The translations under genes were made by a program, and so were the position numbers. Of a DNA stretch of 64,000 bases, positions 935 to 53,119 are shown one piece after another. Each line of letters starts with the position of its first letter. Within the stretch, counting starts at the first letter, position 1. The notes below the pieces were generated by a model. It ran no database searches and was not told where the DNA came from. It saw nothing but the letters and a program-made list of their open reading frames with translations. The DNA comes from Octopus sinensis. Taxonomy: Eukaryota. The stretch is from assembly GCF_006345805.1 (NCBI RefSeq), contig NC_042999.1, positions 68,448,001 through 68,512,000 of the forward strand. The letters are read 5' to 3'.

Positions 935-1066
935 ATTGCTTTCCTCATTTCTTTTTGTAGAAGAGCGTAGGCTCGAAACGTTAAAGACTATTCCATTTTT
1001 CCTGTGTGTTAAATTTATTAACGTTGTTGCTCACCTGTCTGTCTTCTGTGTTTTTGTATAATTTTG

Positions 1067-1070
<4 letters not shown>
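935..1070 (+). mobile_element. Penelope pseudo-LTR-like repeat with degenerate hammerhead motif
   Basis: TTGTAGA-AGAGC-GTAG-GCTC-GAAAC-GTT at 955-982 (core CUGANGA mutated); similar sequence in opposite orientation at ~33005-33090 and ~49660-49775; ends in (TA)n. Confidence 0.45.
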
Positions 1071-1119
<49 letters not shown>

Positions 1120-1123
<4 letters not shown>

Positions 1124-1580
1124 CAAAATAAGCAACAAGGATATCCAAGGTAGTGTAGTACAATCGTTTCATGCTACTTCATTTTATTAAACAAGTAAGT
1201 ATTACATCAGTTTTAAAATGTAGAGCAATCTTCAGCCACATATAGAATTTTTTAATGAAATAGACAATGCACATTTTTATTTATTTTTACTTATTTCATT
1301 TGCCAACATTTCAAAGAGGGTAGATATATAGACAGAGAGGTTAATTTCATCATTAAGAACATGGTAGTAGAAGGTTCTTCTCCATCTGCAGAATTTTTAT
1401 CACTGAGTTCACTTTGCTATTTAGATTTATCAATGGGTAGGTTTTTTTTTATTTGGTTCAATGGAGACAAACAAGAATTTCTTCTATTTATAGATAGAGG
1501 AAAGGGTAGTACAAATATCAAAGCCATAAATCCAGCCCCATTATGAGGAATTTAACTCAGGCATATTTTAAAATACATTA
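1120..1580 (-). mobile_element. Possible decayed Penelope-like 3' end
   Basis: Minus-strand frameshifted remnant ~LNSKSELSDK.CRWRRTF resembling the C-terminus of some Penelope-like ORFs; downstream degenerate CTGAAGA...AAAAC-TGAT-GTA motif; ends in (TA)n. Confidence 0.3.
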
Positions 1581-1584
1581 AAAT

Positions 1585-1894
1585 AGTACTTATTTTATCG
1601 GTCTTTTGCCGAACTGCTAAGTTACGGGGATGTAAACACATCAGCATCGGTTGTCAAGCGATTTTTTGGGGAAAAACACAGATCCAAAAACATATACACA
1701 CATATACATACATATATATATACATATATAGCGACGGGATTCTTCCAGTTTCCGTCTACCAAATCCACTCACAAGGCTTTGGTCGACCCGAGACTATAGT
1801 AGAAGGCACTTGCTCAACGTGCCACGCAGTGGGACTGAACCCGGAACCATGTGGTTGGTAAGCAAGCTACTTACTACACATCCACTCCTACGCC
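1585..1894 (-). mobile_element. tRNA-derived SINE, family A (partial)
   Basis: Minus-strand head with B-box GGTTCAGTCCC; body matches many copies in the window. Confidence 0.85.
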
Positions 1895-2224
1895 TATTTA
1901 TTGTTTCTTTTTACATTCGGTGAAAACCTCATACCCAAGGGTGGGATACTTAATCTCTGCCGTGCATATTGGCCAAGCAACTTCAGTTGCAACCCAACAT
2001 CACCAAATTTGGTGACCCTACTACCTTGTTATTTCTCAATCTAATTCATTTCACTTCATTTACCTTTACCCCTTGTATCCCGTTGAGGTCATTATTGACT
2101 TTTATTCTTCTGGTCAAGCATTGAGGTCAAATTTAATAATCTAACTACTCGCTACGAATTTAAGGAGTTCTGCCTATTACTGAACTGGCAGAATCATTTG
2201 AGCGTCGGACAAAATGTCATACTC

Positions 2225-2439
2225 TTTTACTCTTTTAATTGTCTCAGTCGTTTGACTGTGGCCATGCTGGAGCACCGCCTTTAGTCGAGCAAATCGACCC
2301 CAGGACTTATTCATTGTAAGCCTAGTACTTATTCTATCGGTCTCTTTTGCCGAACCGCTAAGTTACGGGGACGTAAACACACCAGCATCGGTTGTCAAGC
2401 GATGTTGGGGGGGGGGAACAAACACTGACACAAACGTAT

Positions 2440-2476
<37 letters not shown>

Positions 2477-2650
2477 CATATATACGACGGTCTTCTTTCA
2501 GTTTCCGTCTACTAAATCCACTCACAAGGCTTTGGTCGGCCCGAGGCTATAGTAGTAGACACTTGGCCAAGGTGCCACGCAGTGGGACTGAACCCGGAAC
2601 CATGTGGTTGGTAAGCAAGCTACTTACCACACAGCAACTCGTACGCCACT
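2225..2650 (-). mobile_element. tRNA-derived SINE, family A
   Basis: Near full-length copy with internal CA/TA microsatellite; near-identical to 14475-14878, 19433-19815, 28415-28790. Confidence 0.9.
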
Positions 2651-2739
2651 CCATGCAGTATTTATTCCGGCTATTTACATGAGAAGTTCAAACCCCTCTC
2701 CTCAAGAATTGCTCTACTTCTGCCAAAATCAGGAACAAT

Positions 2740-3600
2740 GATAGGCATAATCGTTAACAAGCCAGACAAAATGCCTTCCGGCATTTCTTACGGCGTTATG
2801 TTCTGAGTTCAAATTCCACCGAGACCGACATTGCCTTTCATCCTTTCAGAGACGATAGAAACAGCCAAATACAGGAGTTGATTTAATCGACTGGTTCTCG
2901 CCCTCAAAAAAAAAAAAAAAAAAAAAAAATACCAGGCCTTGCGCCTATTGTAGAAAGAATTATTATTATTATTAAGGTGGCGAGCAGGCAGAATTGTTAC
3001 CACGCCGCACAAAATGCGTTCTGAGTTCAAATTCCGCCAATTCGACTTTGCGTTTCATCCTTTCAGGGTCGATAAAATAAGTGCCGGTTGAGTACTGGAG
3101 CTGATTTTATCGACTTCCCTACTCTCCAAACACTTCTGGCCCTGAGCCAAAATTTGAAACCATTTAAGGCGGCGAGTTAGCAGAATCGTTAGCCTGCAAC
3201 ATTTCGTTCTGAGTTCAAATTCCGCCGAGGTCGACTTTGCCTTTCATCCTTTCGGGGTCGATAAATTAAGTGCCAGTCAAATAATGAAGTCGATGTAATC
3301 GGCTAGTCCCCTCACCTAAACCTTCAGGCCTTGTGCCTGCCGTAGAAAGGATTATTTCTATAATAATAATAATAATAATAATTATTATTATTATTATTAT
3401 TATTATTGCTGGCAGAATTGTTAGCACGCCGGGCAAAATACTTTCGCCCGTTTCTACGTTCTGAGTTCAAATTCCGCCGAAGTCGAATTTGCCTTTCATC
3501 CTTTCGGGGTCAATAAATTAAGTACCAGTGAAAGACTGGGGTCGATGTAATCGATTCATCTCCTCTTCAAAATGGCAGCCCTTGTGGCAAAATTTGAAAT
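2740..3600 (+). mobile_element. Cluster of four tRNA-derived SINEs, family B
   Basis: Repeated GGCGAGCTGGCAGAATCGTTAG head, GTTCAAATTCC B-box and GTCGACTTTGCCTTTCATCCTTTCGGGGTCGATAAA core, separated by (ATT)n/(A)n. Confidence 0.85.
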
Positions 3601-4429
3601 CATTATTATTATTATTATTATTATCACTATTATTTACTCATGCTTTATCGCTTCTATATTCTTCTATTTACTCATGAAATCCTGATTAATAATCGACACA
3701 CTTGTTACTATGAAAGGGTCATTATCAGAGATTTACAAGATAAAGCTCTCCATCGTGGATATTTCATCGATTCCACCACACACACACACAAGCAAACACT
3801 CACACGAGCTTAGCCTTCCATTTTCTTTTTTCAACCCCGCTTCTCTCTCCACTACAATTTTCTTATACTCGGCTTCTTTCTTCTGCACGCTCTCGATCCG
3901 ATATTCCTTATTTGAGAAATGGAAAAGCCTTTTACCGCTAGTACTCGTTCATGTTTGCTCTTTATTTGATTTGATTACATTTATATTTCTCACCCATATC
4001 TCCCCTCGTTCATTTATCTACACAGTCGTCTGCTCTGCCGTCTGCCATTATTACCGCCATCACTATTTTCATGATCAATCTCGTTTGCTCTTGCGAAGTT
4101 AGTCGCCGGCATCGCCTTCAGAGTCATCACTGTAATACCGCCGCCGCCGTTGTTACTGCTGTGGTCACGATGTGAAGACTACCAGCTGATGACAAAGCTC
4201 TTCACACCCCGCTTCCCGTGCCCCACTCTCCTCCTCCGTCAACACATATCATCATCAGCATCATTGCTATCATAATATCGTTAAACTAGTGTATGCAGAC
4301 ACGATTACAATATCGCTTCTTGGTTGGGCCAACAATAAATAGGAACACCAGAATCAATTCTACAGCATTAGATTACTGAACAAAAAAGAAAAAAAAACCC
4401 AACTTACATACAAACATATACATATATAC

Positions 4430-4596
4430 TCAAGCACACATACACACACATATGTATACGTATGTATACACACACACACATGTATACACACACATGTATA
4501 CGTATGTATACACACACACACATATGTATACGTATGTATACACACACACACATATGTATACGTATGTATACACACACACACATATGTATACGTATG

Positions 4597-4644
<48 letters not shown>

Positions 4645-4670
4645 CACACACATACATATGTATACGTATG

Positions 4671-4728
<58 letters not shown>

Positions 4729-4733
4729 CACAC

Positions 4734-4788
<55 letters not shown>

Positions 4789-4833
4789 CACACACATACA
4801 TACACAAACACATATATATATATATATATATAT
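4430..4833. repeat. Compound CA/TA micro/minisatellite
   Basis: ~30-bp unit ATATGTATACGTATGTATACACACACACAC, reiterated. Confidence 0.95.
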
Positions 4834-4834
4834 A

Positions 4835-6037
4835 CTAGCTGAGGTTGACCCGCTCTACGCGCGGGTAAGAGTGTGGTTGTTACTTTCTGTTGCTTCCTTT
4901 CAGCACGTAAAAAGCACCATACGAACGTGGCCGATTGCAGCGCCGCCTTGACTGGCTTCTGTGCTGGTGGCACGTAAAAAGCACCAACCGATCGTGGCCG
5001 CTGCCAGCCCCCCTGGCACCTGTGCGGGCGGCACGAAAAAAGCACCCACTACGCTCACAGAGTGGTTGGCGTTAGGAAGGGCATCCACCTGTCGAAACAC
5101 TGCCAGATCAGACTGGAGCCTGGTGCAGCCTCCTGGCTTCCCAGACCCCTGTCAAACTGTCGAACCCGTGCTAGCACGGAAAACGGGCGTTAAACGATGA
5201 TGATGATGATGATGATTCTCCCTCTTTGTTTCTTTCTCCTTTCTCTCTCACTTTCCCCACTCTCTTACTCTTCCTTTCTCTCGGACTCTCCCTCGCTTTC
5301 TCTTACTCTCTATCTTTATGTATCTCTCTCCCATTTATAAACAGCAAAAGATCTTGAGTAAGTTGAGAAATAAAATATTTAGAAAGATCAATCATAAATA
5401 TCAGGCAGTTACAAAGGAAAGGTCTGCTTCAAGACAGACAGCAAAACACTAACATTAAAAAGGGACAGACGAACTTGCGAGCTGAATAAAAATAATAAAA
5501 TATTGGAAACCAAAGTGTGAAGGGATAGAATTTGAGGATAGTAGAGTCACCATGGCTGGCATTTCTTAACGACGGACAGCAACGTATTGACAGTTCAACG
5601 GCTGGCGTAAAATTTTGAACTTGATGTAAAAGAAAATCCCTAAAAACCAAGTTTTGACTTGATTCTTTCTCACGACAGTAGACTCACGATGGCAAGCATT
5701 CAAAACTTCTTCATCGTGGACGGCAACACATTGACGATTAAAAGGCTGGCGCAAATTTTTTAGCTTGATGTAACAGAGAATTGCTAAACACGCGCTCCTT
5801 TAAATTTTAATCCCCTTCCAGTCCCATTTATACCCCTTCTCACCTTTTGGTTAATATAACCCGATTTTATTTGGGTCTACTGGGGCCACATTTTATAAGA
5901 TGAGGACTCAACCAAGTTTCCCAAGTTCTGGTCATAGACCATAGAACACTCAACCAAGTTTCCCGAGTTCTGGTCATAGACCATAGAACACTAAACCAAG
6001 TTTCCCGAGTTCTGGTCATTTGCAGAATAAATAGAGA
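4835..6037 (-). mobile_element. Helitron-like non-autonomous element (interrupted by SINE)
   Basis: Minus-strand 3' end: hairpin ACCCGCGCGTAGAGCGGGT followed by CTAG|T in a (TA)n site; 41-bp internal tandem repeat at ~5907-6020; far boundary uncertain. Confidence 0.45.
4866..5216 (+). mobile_element. SINE 3' part with (GAT)n tail
   Basis: Internal repeats GCACGTAAAAAGCACC, then GTGGTTGGCGTTAGGAAGGGCATCC motif and GTTAAAC(GAT)n tail as in RTE-partner SINEs. Confidence 0.75.
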
Positions 6038-6256
6038 CGGCGGAGGTGGCAGACGTCGTTGCAATGTAAACATGATTTGTTATAAGAGAAAGATTGTCCA
6101 GATTGTGTGTTGGTGGTGGCGATGATAATTATCATTAGGAAAAAGAGTGAGTGAGTGAGGAAGACATACATAAGTTGTGGCGATGATAATTGTAGACCCC
6201 TTTTCACATTTTGATGAAGAGAACCCGATTTCATTCGGGTGTACTGGGGCCACATA

Positions 6257-6303
<47 letters not shown>

Positions 6304-6449
6304 ACGCTGTAGAAATTAAATTAGAGATAAAACCACTAATAGGGAAATGAAACAGTAAAAAACCAAAAACAAAAACATAAAAATAAAAATATATTAGATA
6401 TATGTATATATATATATATATACTTTATTTTAAGCAGCAGAAAATTCAA

Positions 6450-6499
6450 CAAAATCTGTTACTCTGAGTTTCTCGTTGCCGTTCATCAGACAGTTTTTG
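6450..6499 (-). ncRNA. Minimal type I hammerhead ribozyme motif (mirror copy)
   Basis: Exact reverse complement of 6550-6599. Confidence 0.7.
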
Positions 6500-6549
6500 C
6501 TAGAATGGAACATATATATTAATATATTAATATATATGTTCCATTCTAG

Positions 6550-6599
6550 CAAAAACTGTCTGATGAACGGCAACGAGAAACTCAGAGTAACAGATTTTG
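6550..6599 (+). ncRNA. Minimal type I hammerhead ribozyme motif
   Basis: CTGT-CTGATGA-ACGGCAACGA-GAAAC-TCAGA-GTA-ACAG: intact core, stem I CTGT/ACAG extendable, weak stem II, near-palindromic stem III. Confidence 0.7.
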
Positions 6600-6697
6600 T
6601 TGAATTTTCTGCTGCTTAAAATAAAGCATATTACTCTACCACTGGTATTTGAGTACTCTTTTTTCCACCTTGTTTCACATTTATGTGTTTACTCCGG

Positions 6698-6740
<43 letters not shown>

Positions 6741-7199
6741 TGACAGGTAGACAATAGAATGCGATGGCGATGGGGCTGGCGATGTAATATTTGTTACTGT
6801 CCATGAACGCTGATAGATACATGAGTAAAATGTATAGGAAGGTAAGAAATAAGAGTGAGTGAAAATGTTCTTGGAAGAGAGTAAAGAGCGACAGAGTGAT
6901 TTGAGGAAGGCTTTACATTAAATAACGGTAGTTGCATTGTCAAATGAAGAGGAGTGACAGAGTACTGGAGGAAATAGGGCGAGGTAGGAAGATGGCCCCT
7001 AGCAACCACACCTTTTAAGCTAGGGATTTCTAAGGTAGCCCACGCGCATCGTCACCTCATTCTACATGTGCCTGTAAATTTTGGAGCGAATCGGACGGGA
7101 TGTAGTGGCATTGAAAGCGAACCAAGCGGTAAAAACGCATTTCAGTTTTATATATAGAGATATATACACACACATACATACACAAACACATATATATTT

Positions 7200-7385
7200 C
7201 TCTTTTACTTGTTTCAGTCATTTGACTGCAGCCATGCTGGAGCACCGCCTTTAGTCGAGCAAATCAACCCCAGGACTTATTCTTTGTAAGCCTAGTACTT
7301 ACTCTGTCGGTCTCTTTTGCCGAACCGCTAAGTTACGGGGAAGTAAACATACCAGCATCGGTTGTCAAGCGATGTTGGGGGAGAA

Positions 7386-7440
<55 letters not shown>
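7200..7440 (-). mobile_element. SINE family A, 3' half
   Basis: Matches family A body up to the (CA)n tract. Confidence 0.85.
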
Positions 7441-7451
<11 letters not shown>

Positions 7452-7654
7452 GTATGTATGTATATATATATATATATATATATTACACCCGATGAGATAC
7501 GTCTGCACCACCAGATACTTCTGAACCAGTTGTTGAGTGTTCCACCCAAGAGGAGTCGATGCTACATGTGTCGAAACAATTGTGATTAATAATATATTCT
7601 CGTATATGCCATCTTCTGTCTTTCATTTGTTTTATATATATATATATATATATA

Positions 7655-8036
7655 CTAGCAGTATCGCCCGGCGTTGCTCGGGTTTGTAAGGGAAATAACT
7701 ATAAAGCATTTTTAGAGAGTTATAGCCAAAAAATAGCAAAAAAATGGAAAGAAAATGGTAAATTTTTTTTTGAGAGTTAAAACGGTCGAGTTGCGTCCCC
7801 TAGACAGTCTGTGGTTTGTGTTTCTGATTCTCGACCCCATGTCGAATTTATCGATTTTTTTTAGAACTGGGGCAACTTTTCAAAATTTTCTCTGCGTTAG
7901 TTTTGAATTATGACTTTGGGCTATGTGTGTGTCAAGTTTCATCAGAATCGGTTGAAAGCCGTGGTCAGGGTGAGGGTACAACCTAACAGACACACAGAAA
8001 CACACACAGACAAACTGCCGTTTATATATAGAGAGA
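7655..8036 (-). mobile_element. Non-autonomous Helitron-like element
   Basis: Minus strand starts A|TCTCTC and ends with hairpin CCCGAGCAACGCCGGG then CTAG|T; inserted in (TA)n; no TSD. Confidence 0.75.
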
Positions 8037-8059
8037 TATATATATGATGTATGTATGTA

Positions 8060-8280
8060 TGTATGTGTGTATGTGTGTGTTTATTTGTCCCGTTACCCAC
8101 CGCTTAACAACCGGTGCTAGTGTGTTTACGTCCTTGGAACTTAACGGTATGGCAAAACAGACCAATAGAATATGTATGAGGCTTAAAAAAAATGTAAACT
8201 GGGGTCGATTCGTTCCCCAAAACTCTTCGAGGCGGTGCCCCAGCTTGGCCACAGTCATATGACCGAAACAAGATAGAAGA
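8060..8280 (+). mobile_element. SINE family A, 3' half, diverged
   Basis: Reverse-complement match to family A body. Confidence 0.7.
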
Positions 8281-8646
8281 AAATAAAAGACATCATCATA
8301 TAAATAATTATTACCGAAGAATAAAAGAATTTTGGAAATAGTTGGCCTGGCCGTTAGATTATACTATATTTTTGATAAGATATAAAACCGCTTCGAGTCG
8401 AACAATTTAGCTGTTTATCATGAATGCTTCATTAAAACGTTTTACTTAAAAAGAAAAAAAGGTATTAATTAAACGATTTTGAACCATATATTATCGAGGA
8501 ACAAAGGTTTTCCGATTGCAGAAAGAAAGATAGGAAGGAAGGAAGAAAGGAGGAAAGAAAAAAAGAAGGGTAAAAAATGACGTTGGTCATTGAAACTTGT
8601 TTTTCTTATTTCATACTCGATCCTTTTTATTTTGTTATTTTTACCT

Positions 8647-8845
8647 TGGCAGAATCGTTAGCACGCTGGACGAAATTCTTAGCGGCATTTCGCCCGTCGC
8701 TACGCTCTGAGTTCAAATGCTGCCGAGGTCGACTTTGCCTTTCACCCTTTCGGGGTCGATAAATCAGTTACCAGTGAAGCACTGGGGTCGATGTAATCGA
8801 CTAGCCCTCACCCAACAAATTTGAAGCCTTGTGCCTATAAGAGAA
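8647..8845 (+). mobile_element. SINE family B
   Basis: Head, B-box and GTCGACTTTGCCTTTCA core. Confidence 0.85.
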
Positions 8846-8942
8846 AGGTTTCTTTATTTTACGAACCACATACATCTGGTATCAAGACAACATGCATATT
8901 TTCACACACACGCACGAGGGTGCATATATATATATATATATA

Positions 8943-9993
8943 TATTGGGCATATTATTCCCTCCTTCAGCTTGCTTGGCAGTTTGCCATTTGCTAGAAAG
9001 CTCTGGAAAAGAATCTGGAGGGGTTTTGCCAGGGCATGCTTACACGATTTGAGGAGGATTGCTGAGAAACCATCAGGACCAGCAGTTGAGTTTGTGTCCA
9101 CTTCATCTATGACTAGTAGTATATCTTCTTCGCTAATTTCAATGTATTCATTTGTAACTGCCTCGCTGGTTTTTGGTGAGGCGGCAAAGAAGTTCACTTG
9201 TCTGTGTTCCAACGGGGTGGTAAAGACACTTTTGAACTGGTCATTCAGTATCTCACTAATCTTAATTGAACTGTCTGTGAGGGAGCCATCCTTTTGGAGG
9301 AGGGGTCCTATCTTGCAGTGTACTGAGGCTGTTTCTTTCGTGTAATGAAAGAAGGCCTTTGGGTTTGACTTAATGTGTTTTATAACCCAGGCTTCTTTGT
9401 CTGCTTTCTCTCTCACAGGGTTGTTGCAGCCTTTTTTCGATCTCAATCAGTGTTGTTTCTAGGCGGGACGTTTCGCTACTTTTGGGATGTTGGTTGAGTC
9501 GATTTCAACCTTCGTCCGTCGTCTCATGAGGATCTTCCTGTCTCTTCGAATCTTGCTCCTATTTGTTTTGGCCTTGTGCTCTGGGACATATTTCTGGCAT
9601 ACGGCTTGCACAGAAGACATGAAACATTCTAGTTTCATGTCAATGTCTGGTGTGGAGAGACATTCCGGCCAGTCCTCTCTAAGGATCTCTTTTCGGATCG
9701 ATTTCCAGTCTGCTTTGTGGAGGTTCAGATTGGAGAGATTTCGGGTGCTTCCTTTAGGCTGTATGTCACTGGTTACTTTCGGCCCAAACATAGACAGCTC
9801 TATAATGTTGTGATCCGAGACTAATGTCAGCGTCAGTTTCACATCATGAATGATGTCCATATTGTTCGTGAAGCAGAGATCCAGAATGTTATTCGCCCTA
9901 GTTAGTTTGAGTACAGCTTGTTCCATGAAGAGGGCATTGGTGAGGTTGAGCAGGGACTCCACCTGTGATTGCTTGCAATGAATCATTCCTGAC
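8943..9993 (-). pseudogene. CR1/L2-like LINE ORF2 fragment (end of APE endonuclease to start of RT), frameshifted
   Basis: Motifs TRANNILDLCFTN and SDHNII (APE); NPKAFFHY, ILNDQFKSVFT, AGPDGF, LAKPLQILF, ICPI (pre-RT); both ends in (TA)n. Confidence 0.9.
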
Positions 9994-9994
9994 A

Positions 9995-10015
9995 GTATAT
10001 ATATATATGTTTGTG

Positions 10016-10088
<73 letters not shown>

Positions 10089-13263: not shown

Positions 13264-13840
13264 GCTGGCAGAAACATTAGCACGCCGGGCGAAATGCCTA
13301 GCGGTATTTCGTCTGCCGTTACGTTCTGAGTTCAAATTCCGCCGAGGTCCATTTTGCCTTTCATCCTTTCGGTGTCGATTAAATAAGTACCAGTTACGCA
13401 CTGGGGTCGATATAATCGACTTAATCCGTTTGTCTGTCCTTGTTTATCCCTTCTGTGTTTAGCCCCTTGTGGGTAGTAAAGAAATAGGTATTTCGTCTGC
13501 CGTTACGTTCCGAGTTCAAATTCCGCCGAGGTCCATTTTGCCTTTCATCCTTTCGGTGTCGATTAAATAAGTACCAGTTACACACTGGGGTCGATATAAT
13601 CGACTTAATCCGTTTGTCTGTCCTTGTTTATCCCTTCTGTGTTTAGCCCCTTGTGGGTAGTAAAGAAATAGGTATTTCGTCCGTCTTTACGTTCCGAGTT
13701 CAAATTCCGCCGTGGTCGACTTTGCCTTTCATCCCTTCGGTGTCGATAAAATAAACACCAATCGAACACTGGGACCGATGTGATCGGTTAGCCCCTTAAC
13801 CTAAAATTTCAGGCCTTGTGTCTATAGCAGAAAGAAATAT
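13264..13840 (+). mobile_element. SINE family B with internal 184-bp tandem reiteration
   Basis: GTATTTCGTC restarts at 13304, 13488 and 13672. Confidence 0.9.
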
Positions 13841-15080: not shown

Positions 15081-15729
15081 AAAAACTCGACCGACCGTCC
15101 TTGGGTGGGCTTCAACCATCAACATTTTCGTTAACAGCCGAACGCGTTAACCGATTGCGCCACAGAGACACTTAAGAAAAAGAAAAGGAAACCACACAGA
15201 GCGTCACGTCTGGAGTGCCTTTATTCATGGGTCTATCATCAATAACAACACAACAATAATCACTATCAAATACCTCAGCAGCACCATCACCACGGTTATC
15301 AACCAACCCGCAACTATCTCTGCCACCTACGCCGTCACAACGTCGATGTACCACGGCGACCACCAGAAGCGCGTTTCTATTACGATACCACCGAGTAATG
15401 GTGCAAAACAGAAGTACATCACACACACGCCGCGGTCTGCCTTTTCAGTTTGGCCAAGGCTGGTTGTTGGTCAGTCACAGGACAATTGATGTGTGCTCAA
15501 GCTAAAACTGATAAATGCAAGGGGCGTTCGTAATTTGCTCGCAACGACGATCACAATGGCCACCCACACAGGTCGTCTCCTAAAATAAGATATAAAAAAA
15601 AGATGGGTGGATATGTTACAGGACTGACTGTTCATATGGTTCAGGATTTAAGATGTTAAGAAAAGCTGGTGAGGCGAGCTTAAGTATCTATGTACACACA
15701 CACGCACATTGATGTGTGTGTGAATGATT

Positions 15730-26520: not shown

Positions 26521-26706
26521 CTGGATTTTTTTCTCAGAACAAAATATATTAGAGTGATTGGTTTATTGCCAACTTAATGTGGCAGTCTCAGAAAACGAAA
26601 GAATGCTACTGTTATTTAGTCCCAGGAAACATCGTTTCCAGTTAGCTATGTGACACAAGCGTTCTGTGTCCTTACGTTTTCAAACAGGGGAGATAAGTAC
26701 CTACAC

Positions 26707-26781
26707 CTAGCAAAGCCAGCACCCAGAGACTAGTTTCAGAGTCATTGCTCTTCATCAGTCTGGAGTAGCCTGGCTTGCTAG
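26707..26781 (-). ncRNA. Minimal type I hammerhead ribozyme motif
   Basis: Minus strand TCCAGA-CTGATGA-AGAGC-AAT-GACTCT-GAAAC-TA-GTC-TCTGGG; stem I extends via TAGCAAGCCAG/CTGGCTTTGCTA; palindromic stem III ACTAGT. Confidence 0.8.
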
Positions 26782-26800
26782 CTGTCGACGCTTATTCACC

Positions 26801-27687
26801 TGAATAATTCATGAGCGTTATCTTCAAGTTTATTTTAAACAAAAAAAGACTACAATAAACTAATCAATAATATACTCTCCGTTTTTTGTTCACCACTTCC
26901 TCCCCTCATTCAATAAGTTTTTCGTTGGTTTGGCAATAGAAATGTCCAGTTCTTGACTCAAAAACTTCGTCCAACCAAGCCGTCAATTCTACATCATTAT
27001 TGAACGATACGCTACGCAAAGCGTTCGAAAGAGATGAAAATTTGATGGCGCCTAGTCTGGGGAATATGGAGGATGAGGCAACTCTTTCCTTTTGAGTTCT
27101 TGAATCGCGGCTTTGGTCATATTGACGATGTGATGACGGGTGTTGTCGTGTTGCAGAAGAATGCTATTTCGCCTTTTCGGTCTTTTTTGCTAAATTGTTT
27201 CGTTGAGTCGGTGCGGTTGTTGAACGTAGTGCTCCACATTGAGTGTTTGGTTGCACTCAAGCAGTTCGTAATGAATTATGCCTTCCCAGTCCCACCATAC
27301 ACATAACATAGTCAGCCGATGTGTGACTGGTCCTTGAGGTCAAAATTCCCATTTTTGAAGCGCAAAAATTAACGGCGGGTGGTACTTTGATGCATTGTTC
27401 CTTCTCCATTTATGGCACAAATTTCACGAGCAGCCTCGGTGCCCTTAACACCTCAATGAAATGCAAAAATCAAATGGTATTAAAAATACTCAGTTTTGTC
27501 CACCTGACACCTATTTTAATGATCTGAAAACACACTTAAATCAATAAAATTTAGAAATCAAAACACACTATCTTGTAGAGCCAAAAATGCTCTTTTAAAT
27601 ATCATAAAACATTACGTTTTATTTCTGCGTGCATTTTTAAATTTGAGAAAAAAAGAAAACGCTAATGAATTATTCCTCAACCCAATA
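26801..27687 (-). mobile_element. Decayed, internally deleted mariner (DD34D) transposon
   Basis: Minus-strand translation CVWWDWEGIIHYELL, LQHDNTRHH, HPPYSPD*APSNFHLF, and N-terminal EAAREIC...RFKNGNFDLKD; TIR TATTGGGTTGAGGAATAATTCATTAGCG at right, truncated counterpart GAATAATTCATGAGCG at left. Confidence 0.9.
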
Positions 27688-32484: not shown

Positions 32485-32825
32485 TATATATATATATATT
32501 ATAGCACGTATATTTTCGGTGCTACTTACTACATAAATATGCATTAATTTCAGCACCCTCACTGAAAAAGTACGGATGGCAAATTAATTTATTTTGCACA
32601 TTAATTCAGAAACTCGAGTTTGAGGGTAACTACAAAATTTTTTTTTTTCATTCCCCTTGAAATTGGTCTTATTCGTGATTTGAGCTTTAACTGCCCTTTC
32701 TAGCGTGTAAGGTGTCCTGTCAAAGGTCAGCTCATTCGTGTAAAAATTCATAAATTGTTTATGCACCATATCCATATATATATATATATATATATATAGG
32801 TCAAAAACAGTTTGATTCAAATTCG

Positions 32826-32868
32826 TTGGTACTCCGAGTTTCAAAGCGTGATGCTAATCCTCAGCCAT
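32826..32868 (-). ncRNA. Minimal type I hammerhead ribozyme motif
   Basis: Minus strand TGG-CTGAGGA-TTAGC-ATCAC-GCTTT-GAAAC-TCGGA-GTA-CCA; overlaps a 28-bp-arm inverted repeat (32840-32904). Confidence 0.6.
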
Positions 32869-33532
32869 TGGAAATCGTGGCTGAGGTTAGTATCACGCTT
32901 TGAATATATATATATATATTATATATATATATATATTAATATATAGATATATATATATATATATTATAGAGAGAGGAGAGAGAGAGAGAGAGAGAGGAGG
33001 GGAAACTGACCAAGAAAAGACGAAGACAGGTGGTGTAGACAACAAACAGATGTATTAGTATAACGCTCGGGAAGTGAAAAAGTCTTTATACGCGAAACAT
33101 TATATATATTAATGTACACATACGAACAACATATACTCATATGTATGTATTATATTATATTAGTATATATATATATAAATATATTATATATATATATATA
33201 TATATACGGGAAGCATTATATATAACAGATTAATGCAAACATTAACTATACTACATACATGTGTCTATGTGTGTACATATACGAACACACATACACTCAT
33301 ATATGTATAATATTATATATATATAATATAATATATATAATATAATTACAAGCAATAAGGGTTTAGCAACGAGTTGCCTTACCACATACCGAATTTAGAA
33401 ATAGCAGTCAAAGGGTTAAGCTATTTCTTCTACTAAAAAGGGAGATCTCAGTAAAAACAGCATTTGGAAGGCAGACACAAACAGGTAAGAGAGAATGAAT
33501 TGACTGCAATCTATCATACATTTTTTTAGTTA

Positions 33533-33646
33533 TCCACGGACGTACGTTTCGAAATCAAGTTTTAAGGAAAGCATAAGAATTAAATATTAAATATTAAATA
33601 ATAAATAATTCTATCTTACCGAAACTTCTTTTCTCTTCAGCGCAGA
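33533..33646 (-). ncRNA. Type I hammerhead ribozyme motif with long stem II
   Basis: Minus strand TCTGCG-CTGAAGA-GAAA...TTTC-GAAAC-GTAC-GTC-CGTGGA. Confidence 0.85.
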
Positions 33647-34131
33647 ATACTATAATCATAAATGATTCTATATTGATTTTGAGATACCAGAAGGCACCAA
33701 CTCACTCAGTATCAGAGCGAGCTAGAATCCGCAACTGGTATCACGAATTCAATTTGTGAAATGAAACGATTGTGTAAACAGCCCCTTCCACCCGCGTGTA
33801 GCCAAAACAAGATGCTGTGGTCATCTACTGAGATAAAAAATGGTATCCGTAATAATGAAGGGTGAATTAATTAATTTGGAAAAAATTATCAATTACACCA
33901 AGTAGTCTTCGGCATGTAAAAGCCTCATTCGAGGAAAAGTAGTAATACTAAGCAATAAGGGTTTAGCAACGAGTGCCTTACCACATACCGAATTTAGAAA
34001 TAGCAGTCAAAGGGTTTATAGCTATTTCTTCTACTAAAAAGGGAGATCTCAGTAAAAACAGCATTTGGAAGGCAGACACAAACAGGTAAGAGAGAATGAA
34101 TTGACTGCAATCTATCATACATTTTTTTAGT

Positions 34132-34245
34132 TCCACGGACGTACGTTTCGAAATCAAGTTTTAAGGAAAGCATAAGAATTAAATATTAAATAGTAAAAAT
34201 TAAATAATTCTATCTTACCGAAACTTCTTTTCTCTTCAGCGCAGA
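34132..34245 (-). ncRNA. Type I hammerhead ribozyme motif with long stem II (second tandem copy)
   Basis: Same core and stems as 33533-33646, offset by 599 nt. Confidence 0.85.
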
Positions 34246-34694
34246 ATACTATAATCATAAATGATTATATATTGAATTTTGAGATACCAGAAGGCACCAG
34301 CTCCACTCAGTATCAGAGCGAGCTAGAATCCGCAACTGGTATCACCGAATTCAATTTGTGAATGAAACGATTGTGTCAACAGCCCCTTCCCACCCTCGTG
34401 TAGCCAAAACAAGATGCTGTGGTCATCTACTGAGATAAAATATGGTTATCCGTAATAATGAAGGGTGAAATTAATTAATTTGGAAAAATTATCAATTACA
34501 CCAAGTAGTCTTCGGCATGTAAAGCCTCATTCGAGGAAAATTTAAGTAATACTAAGCAATAAGGGTTTAGCAACGAGTTGCCTTACCACATACCGAATTT
34601 AGAAATAGCAGTCAAAGGGTTATAGCTATTTCTTCTACTAAAAAGGGAGATCTCAGTAAAAACAGCATTTGGAAATTAATTAATTTCACCCTTC

Positions 34695-34753
<59 letters not shown>

Positions 34754-37419: not shown

Positions 37420-37436
37420 CTATATATATAAAATAT

Positions 37437-37467
<31 letters not shown>

Positions 37468-38040
37468 AATATATATATAAACTAAATAATATATAACTAA
37501 ATAAATATATAATAAATAAATATATATATAAATAATAAATATAATATATATATAATAAATATATTATATATAAATAAATATATATATATATAAATAAATA
37601 TATATATATATAAATAAATATATATATATATAAATAATATATATATATATAAATAAATATATATATATATAAATAATATATATATATATAATAAATATAT
37701 ATATATAATAAATATATATATATATAAATAAATATATATATATATAAATAAATATATATATATATAAATAATATTAATATATATAAATAATATATATATA
37801 TATAATATATATAATATATATAAATAAATATATATAAATATATATATATATATATAAATAAATATATATATATTAAATATATATATAATATAATATAAAA
37901 TATATATATATATATAAATATATATATATATTATAATAATATATATATAAATATATATATATATATAAATATATATATATTATAATAAATATAATATATA
38001 ATAAATATATTATATATAAATATATATTAAATATAAATAT

Positions 38041-38071
<31 letters not shown>

Positions 38072-38193
38072 AAATTATATATATATATAAATTATATATA
38101 TATATAAATATATATATAAATATAAATATATATATAAATATATATATATATATAAATATAATATATATATAAATATATATATATATAATAAAT

Positions 38194-38245
<52 letters not shown>

Positions 38246-38342
38246 AAATATATATATATATAATATATATATAATATAAAATATATATATAATATATAAT
38301 ATATATATATATAAATATATATATAATAAATATATTATAAAT

Positions 38343-38395
<53 letters not shown>

Positions 38396-38986
38396 TAATA
38401 TATATATAAATATATATATAATATAAAAATATATATAAATAAAAATATATATAAATATAAATATATATAAATATATATTAAATATAAAAATATATATATA
38501 TAATAAATATATATATAACTATTATATAAATATATATATAAATATAAATATATATATATATAAATAATATATATAAATAATATATATAAATATAAATATA
38601 TATATAAATATAAATATATATATATATAAATAATATATATAAATTATATATATATAAATATATTATATATATATAAATATATATTATATAAATATATTAT
38701 ATAAAATAATATATATAATATAAATATATTATATATATATATATAATATATATATATATAAAGTATATATATATAAAATAATATAATAAATATATATTAT
38801 ATATATATATAAATAAAATAAATATATATATAAATATATATATATATATAAATATATATAATATATATAAATATATATATATATATAAATATATAATATA
38901 TATATATATAAATATATATATATATAAATATATATATATCTATATAAATATATATATATATATAAAATAAATATATATATAAATAT

Positions 38987-39057
<71 letters not shown>

Positions 39058-39128
39058 AATAAATAGATATATATATATAAATATATATATAATATATAAA
39101 TATATAGTATATATATAAATATATATAG

Positions 39129-39175
<47 letters not shown>

Positions 39176-39266
39176 TATTATATATATATATAAATATATA
39201 TATATATAAAATATATATATATAATATATATAAATATATATAATATATTATACTATATAAATATAT

Positions 39267-39323
<57 letters not shown>

Positions 39324-39398
39324 ACATATATATATATATAAATATATATATATATAATATATATATATATATATAAATATATATATATATAAAATATA

Positions 39399-39429
<31 letters not shown>

Positions 39430-39439
39430 AATATTATAT

Positions 39440-39472
<33 letters not shown>

Positions 39473-39580
39473 ATATATATAATATAAATATATATATATA
39501 TATATAATATATAATATATAAAAAATATATATATATAAAATATATATATATATATATAATATATATATATATATATAAAT

Positions 39581-39623
<43 letters not shown>

Positions 39624-39652
39624 TATATATATAAAATAAATATATATATATA

Positions 39653-39696
<44 letters not shown>

Positions 39697-39726
39697 TAGA
39701 TATATATATATATATATAAATAATAT
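37420..39726. repeat. ~2.3-kb degenerate (TA)n/(TAAA) array
   Basis: Almost purely A/T; runs into the assembly gap. Confidence 0.95.
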
Positions 39727-39826
39727 NNNNNNNNNNNNNNNNNNNNNNNNNNNNNNNNNNNNNNNNNNNNNNNNNNNNNNNNNNNNNNNNNNNNNNNNNN
39801 NNNNNNNNNNNNNNNNNNNNNNNNNN
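39727..39826. other. Assembly gap (100 N)
   Basis: Run of n. Confidence 1.
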
Positions 39827-47457: not shown

Positions 47458-48131
47458 ATCTCCCTTTTAGTAGAAAGAATAGCTATAACTCTTTGACTGC
47501 TATTTCTAAATTCGGTGTGTGGTGAGGCAAGTCGTTGCTAAACCCTTAATTGCTTAGTATTACTTAAATTTTCCTCGAATGAGGCTTTTACATGCCGAAA
47601 TCTACTTGGTGTAATTAATAATTATTCCAAATTAATTAATTTCACCCTATATTTTTACTGATAACCATATTTCATCCAGTAAATGACCACAGCATCTTGT
47701 GTCTTGGCTGCACGCGGTGGGAAGGGGCTGGTGACACAAACTTTCATTCACACTTTGAATTGGTGGTACTGGTAATGGCTTTAGCTCGCTCTGATACTGA
47801 GTTGAGACGATGCCTTCTAGTATCCTCGAATTTATATACAATTTTCATAATTGTAGTGTCCTACGCTGATGAGAAAAGAAGTTGGGTAAGATAGAATTAT
47901 CTAATTCTTATGCTTTCCTAAAACTTGATTTCGAAACGTACGTCCGTAGGTGACTTAAAATTGTATGATAGATTGCCGTCATTTCATTCTCTCTTACCTG
48001 TCCGTGTTTGCCTTTCAAGTGCTGTGTTTTTACTGAGATCTCCCTTTTACTAGAAAGAATAGCTATAACTCTTTGACTGCTATTTCTAAATTCGGTGTGT
48101 GGTGAGGCAATTCGTTGCTAAACCCTTAATT
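47458..48131 (+). mobile_element. Diverged copy of the hammerhead-bearing unit (~580-bp monomer plus ~94-bp terminal direct repeat)
   Basis: Reverse-complement homolog of the 33350-34699 unit; 47458-47551 repeated at 48038-48131; flanked by (TA)n. Confidence 0.85.
47860..47950 (+). ncRNA. Type I hammerhead ribozyme motif with long stem II
   Basis: CCTACG-CTGATGA-GAAA...TTTC-GAAAC-GTAC-GTC-CGTAGG: canonical core, perfect 6-bp stem I, GUC cleavage triplet. Confidence 0.9.
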
Positions 48132-48236
48132 ACTATATATATATATATATATAATATATAGATAGATATACATACACACACTTATATACATATATATATA
48201 TATATATATATACATATATATATACATACACACACT

Positions 48237-48823: not shown

Positions 48824-48857
<34 letters not shown>

Positions 48858-48860
48858 TGG
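48132..48860. repeat. TA/CA/GA compound microsatellite
   Basis: Direct inspection. Confidence 0.95.
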
Positions 48861-49183
48861 TAAGGGATAGATAAAATACGCATATACGGCGGAGTCAGTA
48901 AAGTTTTACTTGGAGACAGCTCTATGCTTAATCACCCTGGGTCGGATCGCATGGATAAGGGTGTAAGACACCAGTCACCCACTAAATCCAGGGTAGATGT
49001 ATATAGTTGAAACACACACACACACGCATACATTTATATAATATACATATGTATATAGGAAATACAACTGAATACGAATATAAATCCATATATAATAAAC
49101 ACAAATTTATGTACACCACACACACGCGTACATATATATATATATAATATATATATATATACACTTCTATATAAAAATACAAT

Positions 49184-49347
49184 AGGCGCAGGAGTGGCTG
49201 TGTGGTATGTAGCTTGGTTCCGGGTTTCAGTCCCACTGCGTGGCAACTTGGGCACGTTTCTACTATAGCCTTGTGAGTGGATTTGGTAGACGGAAACTGA
49301 AAGAAACCGTCGTATATTATAGATATATATATATATAGATATATATA

Positions 49348-49378
<31 letters not shown>

Positions 49379-49580
49379 GTGGTGTGTGTGTGTATGTTTG
49401 TGTGTGTGTTTGTCCCTCCAGCATCGCTTGACAACCGATGCTGGTGTGTTTACGTCCCCTTAACGTAGCGGTTCGGCAAAAAAACCGATAGAATAAGTAC
49501 TAAGCTTACAAAGAATAAGTCCTGGGGTCGATTTGCTCGACTAAAGGCGGTGCTCCAGCATGACTGAAACAAGTAAAAGA
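49184..49580 (+). mobile_element. SINE family A
   Basis: Head GGCGCAGGAGTGGCTGTGTGG on plus strand; body match. Confidence 0.85.
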
Positions 49581-49600
49581 GAGTATAGAATACACATACA

Positions 49601-49639
<39 letters not shown>

Positions 49640-49641
<2 letters not shown>

Positions 49642-50450
49642 TTTTAATCCAAACGGGAAACAAAAAACAAACAACACATGGAACAATTACAGTATTATTA
49701 TATAGAGGAGGCGCTCAGGAAAAGGAAGCAGGGAGGTATGACGTTTCGAGCGGAGCTCTTCGTCGTCGGAAACATAAAGAAGGAAGAGAGAGGAAAGAAG
49801 ATCCCAGAGCGGGCAACAGGGAAAGAGAAAAAGACGACTGGTGTTTACGAGTTGCACATGGTGAAAGGCGGATGTTTACGAAAAACAGAGCAAAGTGGGT
49901 TTTAAAGGCAAAAGAGTGGAGACAAGGTTGGTAACGCAACAGATGTGTGTGTATGTGTGAGTGTGTGCGTGTGTGTATGTGTGTGGTGAGGCGAGATGAA
50001 AAAACAAAAAAATATATATGTGTGTGTTAGTGTGTGCGTCTGTGTGTAGGCGTGTGAGGTAGGGGCGAGATAGTGGTCAGCTTAGCAGACAAAGGTCAGT
50101 AGTAAGAAAAAGAAGGAAGGAGGAAGGGAGGGAGGGGAAGGGGGTGGGGGCGTATGTAGCGTGCCAGCGTTTGTTGAGTAGTAGTGTGTGTGTGTGTCCA
50201 GTCGTTGGGTGGTATAAATGGCGAGTAGATTGAATGTGTGTAAGAGTAATGTATATATTTAAGCAATGTGTGTATATGTGTGCGCGTGTGTGTAACGAAA
50301 AAGGGGGGGGGGTTAAGGAAAAGGACTCCAGCTGAGGGAAGATGGAAGAGTGGTCCCGCGGAGGCGGGCGTGGGAAAACCCAACGACACGCGACGGTCCA
50401 GGAACGGGCGGGAGGTCTTGTCGGTTCCAAGAGCGAGGTGCTGCGGAGCG
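49640..50450 (-). mobile_element. Penelope-like 3' end / pseudo-LTR with degenerate hammerhead
   Basis: Minus-strand CGACGA-AGAGC-TCC-GCTC-GAAAC-GTC at ~49739-49768; 50300-50450 resembles a garbled GIY-YIG C-terminus (QHLALGTDK...RVSLGF). Confidence 0.45.
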
Positions 50451-52480
50451 TATGCGTACGCGAACCGGCGCAAGCGCGTGCGTGCGTGCGCGAGCCTGCG
50501 AGTATGTGCGTAAGTATGTATGTGTGTGGATGTGTGAGTGTGTCTGTGTGTATGTCCGGGTGGCAGTGTGTCCGATGAATGTATGTGAGTATGTGTGTGC
50601 ATAGATGTATGTCCGTGTGTGTGTGTGTGTGTGTATGTGTGTGAGTGTGTATGTATGTACGTGTGGGTGTATGTATGCGTGTGTGTATGTATGTATGTGT
50701 ACGTGCGTGTGTGTGTGTGTATGCGTGTAGGTGTGCGCGTGTGCATGCATGCATGCATGCATGTGCGTATGTTGTTGTGTGTGTGCATGTGTGTGGGGTA
50801 TATATGTATGTGCGTATATGTGTGTGTGTGTGTGCGTATATGTGTGTGGTGTGTATGCATGTGTGTGTATGTAGGTGTGTGGGCGGTGTGTATAGGTGTA
50901 TGTATGTAAGTATGTATGGGTGTGTCCGTGTATGTGTGTGTATGTATGTGTGTGTATGTAGGTGTGTGGGCGTGTGTATGTGTGTGTATGTAGGTGTGTG
51001 GGCGTGGATATAGGTGTATGTGTGTATGTCTGGGGTGTGTCCGTGCATGTTTGTGTGTGTGTGTGTATGCATGTGTATGTAGTGTGTGTGTACGTGTGTA
51101 TGCGTGTGTATGCGTGCGTTGTGTGTATGTAGGTGCGTGTGTATGCGTGTGCGTGTGCGGTTTATGTTGGTGTGTGCGTATGTGAGTGTGAGTGTATGGG
51201 TGTTTGTCATGCATGTGTGTGCGCGTGCAGGTGAGTGTGTGTGTGGTAGTATGTGTGTGTGTATGTTTGTGTGAGTGTGTATGTGTGTATGTCTATGTGT
51301 ATGTATGTGCGTATAGGAGTATGTGGGTATGTTGTGTGTGTATATGGGTGTATGTATGTATGTGTGTGTGTGTGCATGTGTATAAGTATATGTGTGTGTG
51401 TGCGTATGTGTGTATATGTGTATGTGTGTGTGTTTATGTATGTGTGTATGTATGTGTGTAGGCGTGTGTGTGTAGATGTATGTATGGGTGTGTGTCCGTG
51501 TGTGTGTAGGTAGATGTGTGTGTCTGAGTGAGGGTATGGCTGTGTAGGTGTGTGTGTGTATGAATGTAAGTGTGTGTGTATACAAGTGTAATGTATGTAT
51601 GTAGGTGTGTGTGTGTGTATGTGTTACGTGTGCGTGTGTATGTGTGTGTGTGTATGCGTGTGAGTGTGAGTGTATGGGTGTATGTCTGTGTGTGTGTATG
51701 TCTGAAGTAGGTATGTATGTGTATGTATGTATGTGTGGTGTGTGTGCAGGTATGTGTGTGTATGTGTGTGTGTGAGTAGGTGTGCGGATGTATGTGGGTA
51801 GGGATGCATGCGAGTGTGTGGGTATGTATGCATACATACGCACGCGCACATCCGAAGCAAGCCCACACACACGAAGCGCGCCCACGCACACAACGCACAA
51901 GCAGTACAACGCAAGCCCAAGGGGCCGACCAAGCCCCCAGCGCGCACCAAGGCGCGCGAGCGCAAAGGCCCTCGAACGCCCCGCTACGCGGGAACCGAGG
52001 ATCCATCAGCCAAAAACCGGAAAGCAAAAAAAAGGGGGGGGCTGCCTGGATGCAAAAAGGTGTATGTGTGTGTGCATTCAGTGTAAGGGTGTGCATGTGT
52101 AGGTATGTATGTATGTATGTGCCTACATGTATGTTTGCATGTGGTGTGTGTGAAGTATGTACGTGGGTGTGTGTGTGAGTGTGTGTGTATGTATGTGCGT
52201 ATGTATGTGTGGGTGTTATGTTGTATGTATGTTGTGTGTGTGTGTGTGTGTGTAAGTATGTATGTGGTGCGTATGTATGTATGTGTGTGTGTATGTGCAT
52301 GTTGGTTTGTATGTTAGTGTGTGTTAGTATGTCTGTAAGTGTGTGTGATTAATGTGTGAATGTATGTACGTAGATGGGTCTACGTATGTGTGTGTGTGAA
52401 CAGGCGTGTGGGGGAGGTAGGTGGGTGGGTGGGGTGGGAGGTGGTAGGTGGGGGGTGTGTGTGAGTGGTGTGTCCACAAA
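50450..52480. repeat. Highly degenerate (GT)n array
   Basis: GT/GTAT/GCGT low complexity; looks like poorly polished sequence; source of the spurious 610-aa ORF. Confidence 0.85.
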
Positions 52481-53119
52481 AAAAAAAAAACGGATCTCAA
52501 GAGGAGGGGCTGTGTTAAGTCCGTTGTGGTGGTAGTTTTTGTAGGGTGAAGATGTAGCGTTGCTCCAAGTGGAGCCTGGAAAGTGGGCGACCATGGTGGG
52601 GGGCGAGACCAAACACTGAGTTGTCATCTAGGGAATGGCCGGCCGAGCGGAAGTGGCGTGCGACGGGAGAAAGAGAGTGTAGGCGAACGTCCCTCAAGTG
52701 TTCAGTGAAACGGTCGGACAACCGGCGTCCCGTCTGTCCTACATACAGCATCCCGCATAGGTTGCATTTAATGCAGTAAATAAGGCCAGACGAGGTGCAC
52801 GAAAAGAGTGCCTAATGCGTACAGTGTGCAGGTTGGAGCCGGTGACAGCGGCGGTGGTGTTGGTGATGAAGGGGCAAGTGTTGCAACGGGATCTAGAGCA
52901 AGGGAATGATCCGTGTGGGGCTGAGGGGGAAGAGAGAGAGGGTGCTGTGGACCAGGAGGTCACGCAGATTGCGGGCTCGTTTGAAAGAGGACAGGGGTAG
53001 GTTAGGGAAAATGGGGCGGGTGGTGGGATCAATGGCGGCGAGGCGACGGAAGGCACGTAGTATCTTGCGACGAAGGGGTAGGGTAGAGGGGTGGAAAAGG
53101 AGGGGGAAGGGGGTGCGGT
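52480..53119 (-). pseudogene. Penelope-like element: RT-endonuclease linker plus GIY-YIG endonuclease, frameshifted
   Basis: Motifs IDPTTRPIFPNLPLSSFKRARNLRDLLVHS, PCSRSRCNTCPFI, LYVGQTGRRLSDRFTEHLRDVR, PVARHF, LEQRYIFTL, HNGLN, spread over several frames. Confidence 0.9.

Follow-up and report, generated by a model that had tools for sequence, protein, structure and literature searches.

Relation to described hammerhead elements

Hammerhead ribozymes of Penelope-like elements (PLEs), together with those of retrozymes, are a published class, and members of it with a clear insertion footprint are found in the stretch of Octopus sinensis DNA analysed here (positions 68,448,001–68,512,000 of contig NC_042999.1, 64,000 nucleotides (nt) of a 2.72-Gb genome; hereafter the window). 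An earlier note on window positions 935–53119 had drawn attention to these motifs and to a GIY-YIG remnant among them. Our analysis indicates that the motifs are very probably 3′-end pieces of several PLE lineages. Family A represents the terminal repeat (pLTR) of an autonomous element; families C and D, and likely B, K, F and H, are protein-free, and PLE enzymes acting in trans would have copied them into (TA)n. Most of the stubs in the window, being solitary or inverted, are likely inert, and their co-occurrence is not a local unit.

A published survey of animal hammerheads describes the same type I topology and palindromic helix III, in many families and in thousands of copies per genome. 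Also common to both sets are an extra nucleotide after A9 (here in families E and F), a predominance of single truncated copies, and opposite-strand pairs 100–700 bp apart. The survey gives 2,000–9,000 motifs in other animals, whereas our estimate is ~58,000. Here, by comparison, helix II is often 40–100 nt and the helix III palindromes are often 6–10 nt in length, and U4C and A6U cores are family-wide, where the survey describes U3-A8 as covariant. No paper describing hammerheads in cephalopods or Octopus was found in our literature search.

Metazoan non-LTR retrozymes (Cervera and De la Pena 2020, PMC7229834; Li, Clavereau and Pollet, preprint 10.64898/2026.07.22.740005) are likewise head-to-tail units without an open reading frame (ORF), carrying one type I hammerhead each, as are our families C and D, and PLEs have likewise been proposed as their mobilising partner. 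The family C units (584–607 bp) are above the 170–400 nt of PMC7229834 and within the 51–972 bp of the preprint. In the latter, 24 of 57 Xenopus families matched known transposable elements; C and D here show no homology to the pLTRs of A and E, the two compared. In assembled contigs, the junction of a unit-length circle would look the same as that between tandem units.

Among PLEs proper, family A agrees with the Hydra clade (Craig et al. 2021, PMC8557442) in its protein motifs, short unit, canonical core, (TA)n targets, inverted copy and one-sided tail. Family E shares with the Neptune clade of the same work the DKG motif, the CX2-5CxxC linker and the C-terminal GIY-YIG domain. Our elements differ from those described there in their tails (50–100 nt, against 30–40) and, for family E, in a 3-kb CA-rich 3′ untranslated region (UTR) and a U4C core.

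Hammerhead motifs in the window

Candidates were gathered by listing every CUGANGA (24) and by reading through the window. The descriptor specifies, in type I order, a helix I of at least 3 bp, CUGANGA, a helix II of up to 100 nt, GAAA, a palindromic or near-palindromic helix III, and UH. It finds nine intact-core motifs in the window, in which core, GAAA and UH are arranged with helices I–III as in type I hammerheads. Eight of these lie inside 935–53119, with C3 at 1235 (−) in family K, 6489 (−) and 6560 (+) in A, 26758 (−) in D, 32864 (−) in B, 33640 (−) and 34239 (−) in subfamily C2, and 47866 (+) in subfamily C1. They represent six insertions, as A is an inverted pair and C2 a tandem pair, and five families (K, A, B, D and C with its two subfamilies). 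The first bases of helix II are mismatched in A (A·A), B (U·U twice) and K (U·U).

The earlier note had counted seven such motifs in ~50 kb, with palindromic or near-palindromic stem III throughout; the count is now eight, and the description of stem III is borne out in all of them. Its "four unrelated families" are indeed several but number five, and "unrelated" is not fully right, because A and B share a cassette of helix III and cleavage site (14 of 16 letters). The placement of most motifs in (TA)n holds for five of the six insertions (K, A, B, C2 and C1), with the qualification that it is the elements, not their motifs, that adjoin (TA)n; D has only a short TA-rich flank.

The motifs are real and far above chance. 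Decoy searches with 179 permuted cores (the letters of CUGA-GA) yield 0.039 motifs on average and at most one, against nine for the real core. With a narrower first descriptor, seven motifs were found, compared with a mean of 0.013 (maximum 1) in 300 block-wise dinucleotide shuffles of the window. The bare CUGANGA core is not enriched (24 observed, 19.7 ± 4.0 in 300 shuffles). The count rose from seven to eight once a mismatch was tolerated where helix II begins, and to nine with one G·U in helix III. Since the descriptor was broadened twice after the window motifs had been seen, the count in the window is partly tuned, and a sample spread over the genome is the fairer test.

The ninth match (61147–61187, −, C3 at 61183) lies outside 935–53119; none of the examined loci has a homologue of its motif part, and the match is uncertain. 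A candidate at 43374 (−) is single-copy in the genome (one candidate in total) and probably a chance match. Three others, at 36118, 54648 and 58589 (all +), fail the descriptor; that at 36118 is also without a match in the other loci compared.

Rfam models report no hammerhead in the window, the only match at gathering score being a tRNA; around motif D there is no match at E ≤ 10, and at E ≤ 1 the matches are mostly of microsatellites to miRNA models, with no hammerhead among those listed (150 of 280). The loop-less and long-helix hammerhead forms probably lie outside these models. Hammerhead types II and III and non-circular permutations are absent from the window under a strict descriptor, and the SGC, CSG and GCS block orders (PMC10085705) gave no match in the window or in the 800-kb genome sample, again with a strict descriptor of low sensitivity.

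Abundance in the genome

For the sample, 80 stretches of 10 kb (799,800 bases in all) were taken from 22 large contigs, each at a fixed round position. They contain 17 intact motifs, compared with 0.41 for decoys (maximum 3), corresponding to a density of ~21 per Mb (bootstrap 12.5–31). If the sample is representative, this suggests ~58,000 motifs genome-wide (34,000–85,000), and the very large population that the earlier note had envisaged is thus supported. Seven motifs were found in the 200 kb flanking the window. The window itself is richer than the genome average, although both its selection and the tuning of the descriptor to its motifs bias this comparison. Almost every sampled motif comes from a different family. 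When the palindrome requirement is dropped, helix III is still palindromic at 13 of 20 sites, against 9% for decoys. PLE coding remnants are also frequent, with tblastn matches in 10 of the 80 stretches.

Helix II is at least 40 nt in length (40–100 nt) in 11 of the 17 sampled motifs and at most 17 nt in three. The folding z-scores of ten long helix II segments range from −1.0 to −4.3 relative to base shuffles. Because the spacer of the PMC8557442 descriptor is 7–17 nt, which fits three of the 17, that descriptor would miss most of the sampled motifs. In a scan of the sample for single core changes, U4C gives 6 matches among 102 cores and A6U 5 among 378, while the other 16 changes give 0–4 each.

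Autonomous elements: families A and E

Family A is represented in the window by a head-to-head inverted pair of pLTR ends (6423–6697, both strands; motifs 6456–6493, −, and 6556–6593, +). The ends lie 37 and 108 nt past the predicted cut, a 71-nt tail, and both are in (TA)n. With 40 of 372 candidates scored, there are 41 matches to the family, of which 39 outside the window are 100% identical over 105 nt; here as elsewhere, first-look candidate counts are not copy numbers, and top matches are biased towards close copies. Endonuclease and reverse transcriptase (RT) frames are located upstream of the motif, and at one locus (L227) the motif recurs after 3351 bp, giving a unit with a motif at both ends; the frames are split in the copies examined. 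They carry RWK, DKT, CxCX5C, CxxC and CxH, the combination given as the Hydra-clade signature in PMC8557442. Inverted pairs occur at five of eight loci, that of the window included, with ends 36–37 and 107–110 nt past the predicted cut and in (TA)n. Taken with the tandem at L227, this reproduces the layout of endonuclease-bearing PLEs: a partial tandem, an inverted 5′-truncated copy, a one-sided tail and a (TA)n target. By its sequence, family A is the pLTR of a Hydra-type PLE encoding RT and endonuclease.

Family B forms a similar stub with a partial inverted copy in (TA)n (32799–32903, −; motif 32827–32867, C3 at 32864), with 737 first-look candidates and no adjoining coding frame in the loci examined. 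The short 3′ ends of A, B and K are 31–37 nt past the predicted cut, and the long ends ~95–130 nt; the matching distances hint at a common Hydra-type partner for the three.

The Penelope-like coding remnant of the earlier note is confirmed as a 5′-truncated copy of a Neptune-type PLE, family E (49640–53119, −), which has a long CA-rich 3′ UTR and ends at (TA)18. Of its ORF, the last ~204 codons remain (52500–53117, −), comprising the zinc-finger linker and GIY-YIG domain with several frameshifting indels and without the RT core. The GIY-YIG part (52518–52811, −) matches Pfam PF01541 with E 7.7e-4 and 20.1 bits, below the curated cut-off of 22.6. The microsatellite-like CA-rich sequence at 50500–52400 belongs to the 3′ UTR and is present in other copies.

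Elsewhere in the genome the family is young, with 1635 first-look candidates (96–98% identical) and a full unit of ~6.3 kb, and locus L071 has an unbroken frame of 1008 codons with a pLTR spacing of 6278 bp, although its Pfam scores are below cut-off. DKG, the CX2-5CxxC linker and, at the C terminus, GIY-YIG, motifs of the Neptune clade, are all found, and insertions have a pLTR at each end and the 3′ end in TA. A single frame with RT and a C-terminal endonuclease of this type between pLTRs, as expected of an endonuclease-bearing PLE, is thus found for E at L071 and, with the frames split in the copies examined, in the A unit; the window copies of both are truncated.

The RT match of family E covers residues 491–665. 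As the window copy starts 3′ of that match and retains only the last ~204 codons, it cannot supply RT. Its pLTR has only core-level words in common with C and D. The co-occurring repeats and the local GIY-YIG element do not form one system: the remnant is separate, truncated and without RT core or sequence link, and the co-occurrence adds nothing beyond genome-wide abundance.

ORF-less families and their insertion anatomy

Families C, D and K appear to lack ORFs as far as their sequence was seen. Subfamily C1 is a 584-bp unit with terminal redundancy in (TA)n (47458–48134, +; motif 47860–47950, C3 at 47866, with a helix II of 60 nt and a cut predicted to follow 47944). Subfamily C2 is a tandem array of ~2.2 units of 607 bp, also in (TA)n (33345–34697, −; motifs 33533–33646 and 34132–34245), with a helix II of 83 nt, a 6-nt palindrome in helix III and a helix I of 6 bp. 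The searches gave 2357 first-look candidates for C1 (best 94–97% identical) and 1242 for C2 (97–100%), the arrays reaching at least six units. With the window's own locus left out, 42 of 47 full-length family C motifs are intact. Family D is represented by a 5′-truncated monomer of a 349-bp unit (26544–26801, −; motif 26722–26764, C3 at 26758), whose hammerhead is minimal, with a helix II of 4 bp and a helix III of 1 bp closed by a palindromic tetraloop; it has 2662 first-look candidates (best 88–93%), and the core is present at 17 of 20 loci. The ORF-less tandem units of C and D, each with one hammerhead, correspond to what has been called a retrozyme. The family K element (1121–1545, −; motif 1154–1240, C3 at 1235) has a helix II of 58 nt and a near-palindromic 6-nt helix III. 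Its 3′ end lies 37 nt past the predicted cut, at (TA)26. The family has 1614 candidates (best 96–99%) and at least 500 shared bases upstream.

The helices appear to be maintained. Covariation was examined in families K and C. In K, 7 of 19 pairs are changed on both sides, a value reached in 2 of 500 shuffles and compared with 0–4 in slid controls. In C, 99% of cells are paired and a change on both sides is seen at 1 of 15 pairs, a weak signal, while pairing is kept across subfamilies.

After removal of duplicate loci (5 of 30 for C, 1 of 20 for D), 25 independent C1 loci were available. TA-rich DNA adjoins 32 of 35 3′ ends, and 34 of the 35 fall into two clusters past the cut, 20 at 175–204 nt and 14 at 291–305 nt. 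In nine of ten inverted insertions, a long end is paired with a shorter one. The 5′ ends (n = 15) are scattered from 38 to 574, and none of the 15 is at the cleavage site, so that the idea of 5′ ends set by cleavage was rejected. Units differ by 1.8 substitutions per 200 nt within a locus and 5.2 between loci (28 and 1007 pairs), as expected if one template was read more than once; a homogeneous tandem master fits equally well.

Proposed mechanism and its main alternative

The 5′ truncation, inversion, one-sided 3′ tail and TA targets point to a PLE-type mobilisation of families C and D. PMC8557442 describes for PLEs an arrangement with partial tandems, an inverted 5′ copy and a tail on one side only, and the family C ends match it. 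Two internal initiation sites, a tail and a dispensable ribozyme cleavage have been reported in vitro for another PLE (PMC11167929). In our model, tandem or circular RNA would be bound by a PLE protein, whose GIY-YIG domain would nick TA-rich DNA, and reverse transcription would begin downstream of the ribozyme, at one or the other of two internal sites. Such a course would account for fixed 3′ ends, a tail on one side only, 5′ truncation to varying extents and inverted 5′ copies, and the insertion ends would be independent of the ribozyme cut. The ribozyme would act on multimeric transcripts and trim them to unit length, slowly or conditionally, and mostly in dimeric form through the palindromic helix III. 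Solitary and inverted stubs, which make up most of the window's set, would be inert passengers. Their presence beside the Neptune-type remnant would reflect high density throughout the genome and a common TA target. The suggestion of the earlier note that non-autonomous elements are mobilised by PLEs is thereby upheld for family C, whose ends carry the PLE signature, but not for family A, which encodes RT and endonuclease itself. More divergent PLE RT or endonuclease remnants at six further loci (L178, L123, L113, L132, L162 and L283; 23–46% identity to the A or E proteins) may represent additional PLE families and are candidate partners of the ORF-less ones.

Several observations weigh against this reading. 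The family A frames have no Pfam match, and their similarity to the family E RT is low (24% identity, E 1e-4); the Hydra and Neptune assignments derive from diagnostic motifs, with RT and GIY-YIG Pfam scores below cut-off. No PLE frame adjoins C, D or B in 86 loci (one unrelated insertion, L018) or K in 24 loci, and 45 loci of F and H show two distant weak matches only. C, D, B, K, F and H have no similarity beyond core words to the pLTRs of A or E, the two that were compared. Family D ends are noisier, with the two-end pattern at 6 of 11 inverted loci, and the tails of 50–100 nt are longer than the 30–40 bp of PMC8557442. Covariation was counted on related sequences, with one double change only in C.

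An alternative is that C, D and K are 3′ UTR or pLTR stubs of long autonomous PLEs, the coding part of which was not reached, and that the tandems arose by later local duplication. Family A also looked short and non-coding in the window before it proved to be a pLTR, the homology of K extends at least 500 nt upstream, and local amplification from a pLTR has been suggested (preprint 10.64898/2026.07.22.740005). We nevertheless consider this alternative unlikely: the units of C1 (584 bp), C2 (607 bp) and D (349 bp) are joined head to tail without a frame separating the motifs, and entire arrays terminate within (TA)n in the two-end manner of PLEs, an outcome not expected of local unequal crossover.

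Degenerate motifs and core variants

At least three degenerate motifs had been proposed, and three are present together with a truncated fragment. A family F 3′ fragment (944–1069, +; hammerhead-like 950–987, core 955–962; 871 first-look candidates) ends in (TA)26, and its core combines the family-wide A6U with a private C3U. A related fragment (32990–33095, −) is truncated at about the cleavage site and has no core left. The family H fragment (7485–7631, +), with (TA)n flanks, has a U4C core (7489–7495) and a helix II of ~77 nt, and a 3-nt deletion has removed its cleavage site. In the family E pLTR, the hammerhead-like motif (49735–49775, −; core 49766–49759) has the family-wide U4C and a local 3-nt duplication.

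Comparison with other copies indicates that these "degenerate" motifs come mostly from families with fixed core variants. U4C occurs in 20 of 20 motifs (16 loci) of the family E subfamily, the sister subfamily being canonical; family H has CC at core positions 3–4 in 15 of 20; and position 6 in family F is U in 23 of 26, C in three and A in none. Perreault et al. 2011 (PMC3088659) report U4C, A6 changes, a 2-bp helix II and U·U at 10.1-11.1 as variants of reduced, sometimes sufficient activity, U4C and A6C being slow. The main text of that work nowhere mentions A6U (0 occurrences), and the variants there are not fixed in abundant retroelement families. It was the only paper found on U4C and retrotransposons; Lunse et al. 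2017 may cover such variants.

A bolder reading, which we hold to be unlikely, is that most PLE-linked hammerheads of this genome have left the standard form. About two-thirds, with a helix II of 40–100 nt, would be missed by published descriptors, and U4C or A6U is fixed, with the helices kept, in several of the most abundant families, including a young autonomous one. On this view the ribozyme would be retained mainly because it works slowly as a switch or gives the PLE protein a structural hold, not for fast cleavage, and censuses of animal hammerheads would be large undercounts.

Two observations belong beside these families. The F (+) and K (−) fragments end on opposite sides of a single (TA)26 tract (1070–1121), shared TA targeting in miniature. 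In L217, the 10-kb stretch adjoining the window on its right, three tandem units ~885 bp apart each have a U4C core, a 70-nt helix II and a 6-nt palindromic helix III.

Possible effects on the host

The earlier note had also raised the possibility that the region is intronic and that sense-oriented ribozymes cut the host pre-mRNA. The family C fold is predicted to be nearly free in a 150-nt context (0.1–2.2 kcal/mol), the C2 tandem pair could dimerise in cis, and ~43% of Xenopus retrozymes overlap introns (preprint 10.64898/2026.07.22.740005). However, no host exon was found within 100 kb on either side: of 726 candidate ORFs in 264 kb, 148 were scanned, and the matches are to transposon domains or weak, although small or Pfam-less exons would escape such a scan. 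The inverted copies are predicted to bury A by 80 kcal/mol and B by 34; D costs 4.4 and, as its helix III has only 1 bp, needs a partner. In addition, metazoan PLE motifs cleave poorly in vitro (PMC4209133), and one of nine Xenopus dimers cleaved in the preprint. A host function is very improbable, and by these predictions only the C2 pair could plausibly be active, given transcription of the minus strand. Contigs of three presumed-RNA runs and one unlabelled run cover family C; ends, strand and level cannot be read from them. At 55010–60100, four presumed-RNA runs cover common repeats, with most bins of 57390–60100 uncovered, and no inference is drawn.

An origin of the motifs by chance, in DNA that is AT-rich and repetitive, might be argued from the lack of enrichment of the bare core, the silence of Rfam, the lack of family support for 61183 (−) and 43374 (−), and the few of the 17 sampled motifs that may be fortuitous, but this is refuted for the set as a whole, if not for single motifs, by the decoy and shuffle controls, the palindrome excess, the covariation and the pLTR placement, and has a negligible probability.

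Other repeats

A LINE remnant (8860–10088, −) has a weak endonuclease match (PF14529, E 0.015). The tRNA-like Rfam match (15096–15169, −; 32.7 bits, at gathering score) may be the head of a tRNA-derived SINE. An abundant SINE-like repeat with a tandem unit of 184 bp occurs at 13303–13754 and 56340–56580; presumed-RNA contigs have go-back joints of 175–183 nt in it. A degenerate (TA)n run of 2.3 kb (37421–39826) ends at a 100-N assembly gap. The flanks (L213, L218, L222, L224 and L225) contain hAT, Helitron-type helicase and LINE remnants.

Significance

Young ORF-less families (94–100% identical) with a PLE footprint are found here beside at least two autonomous PLE clades in one genome. This constitutes test material that bears on which enzyme spreads animal retrozymes, and on whether cleavage by the ribozyme matters.

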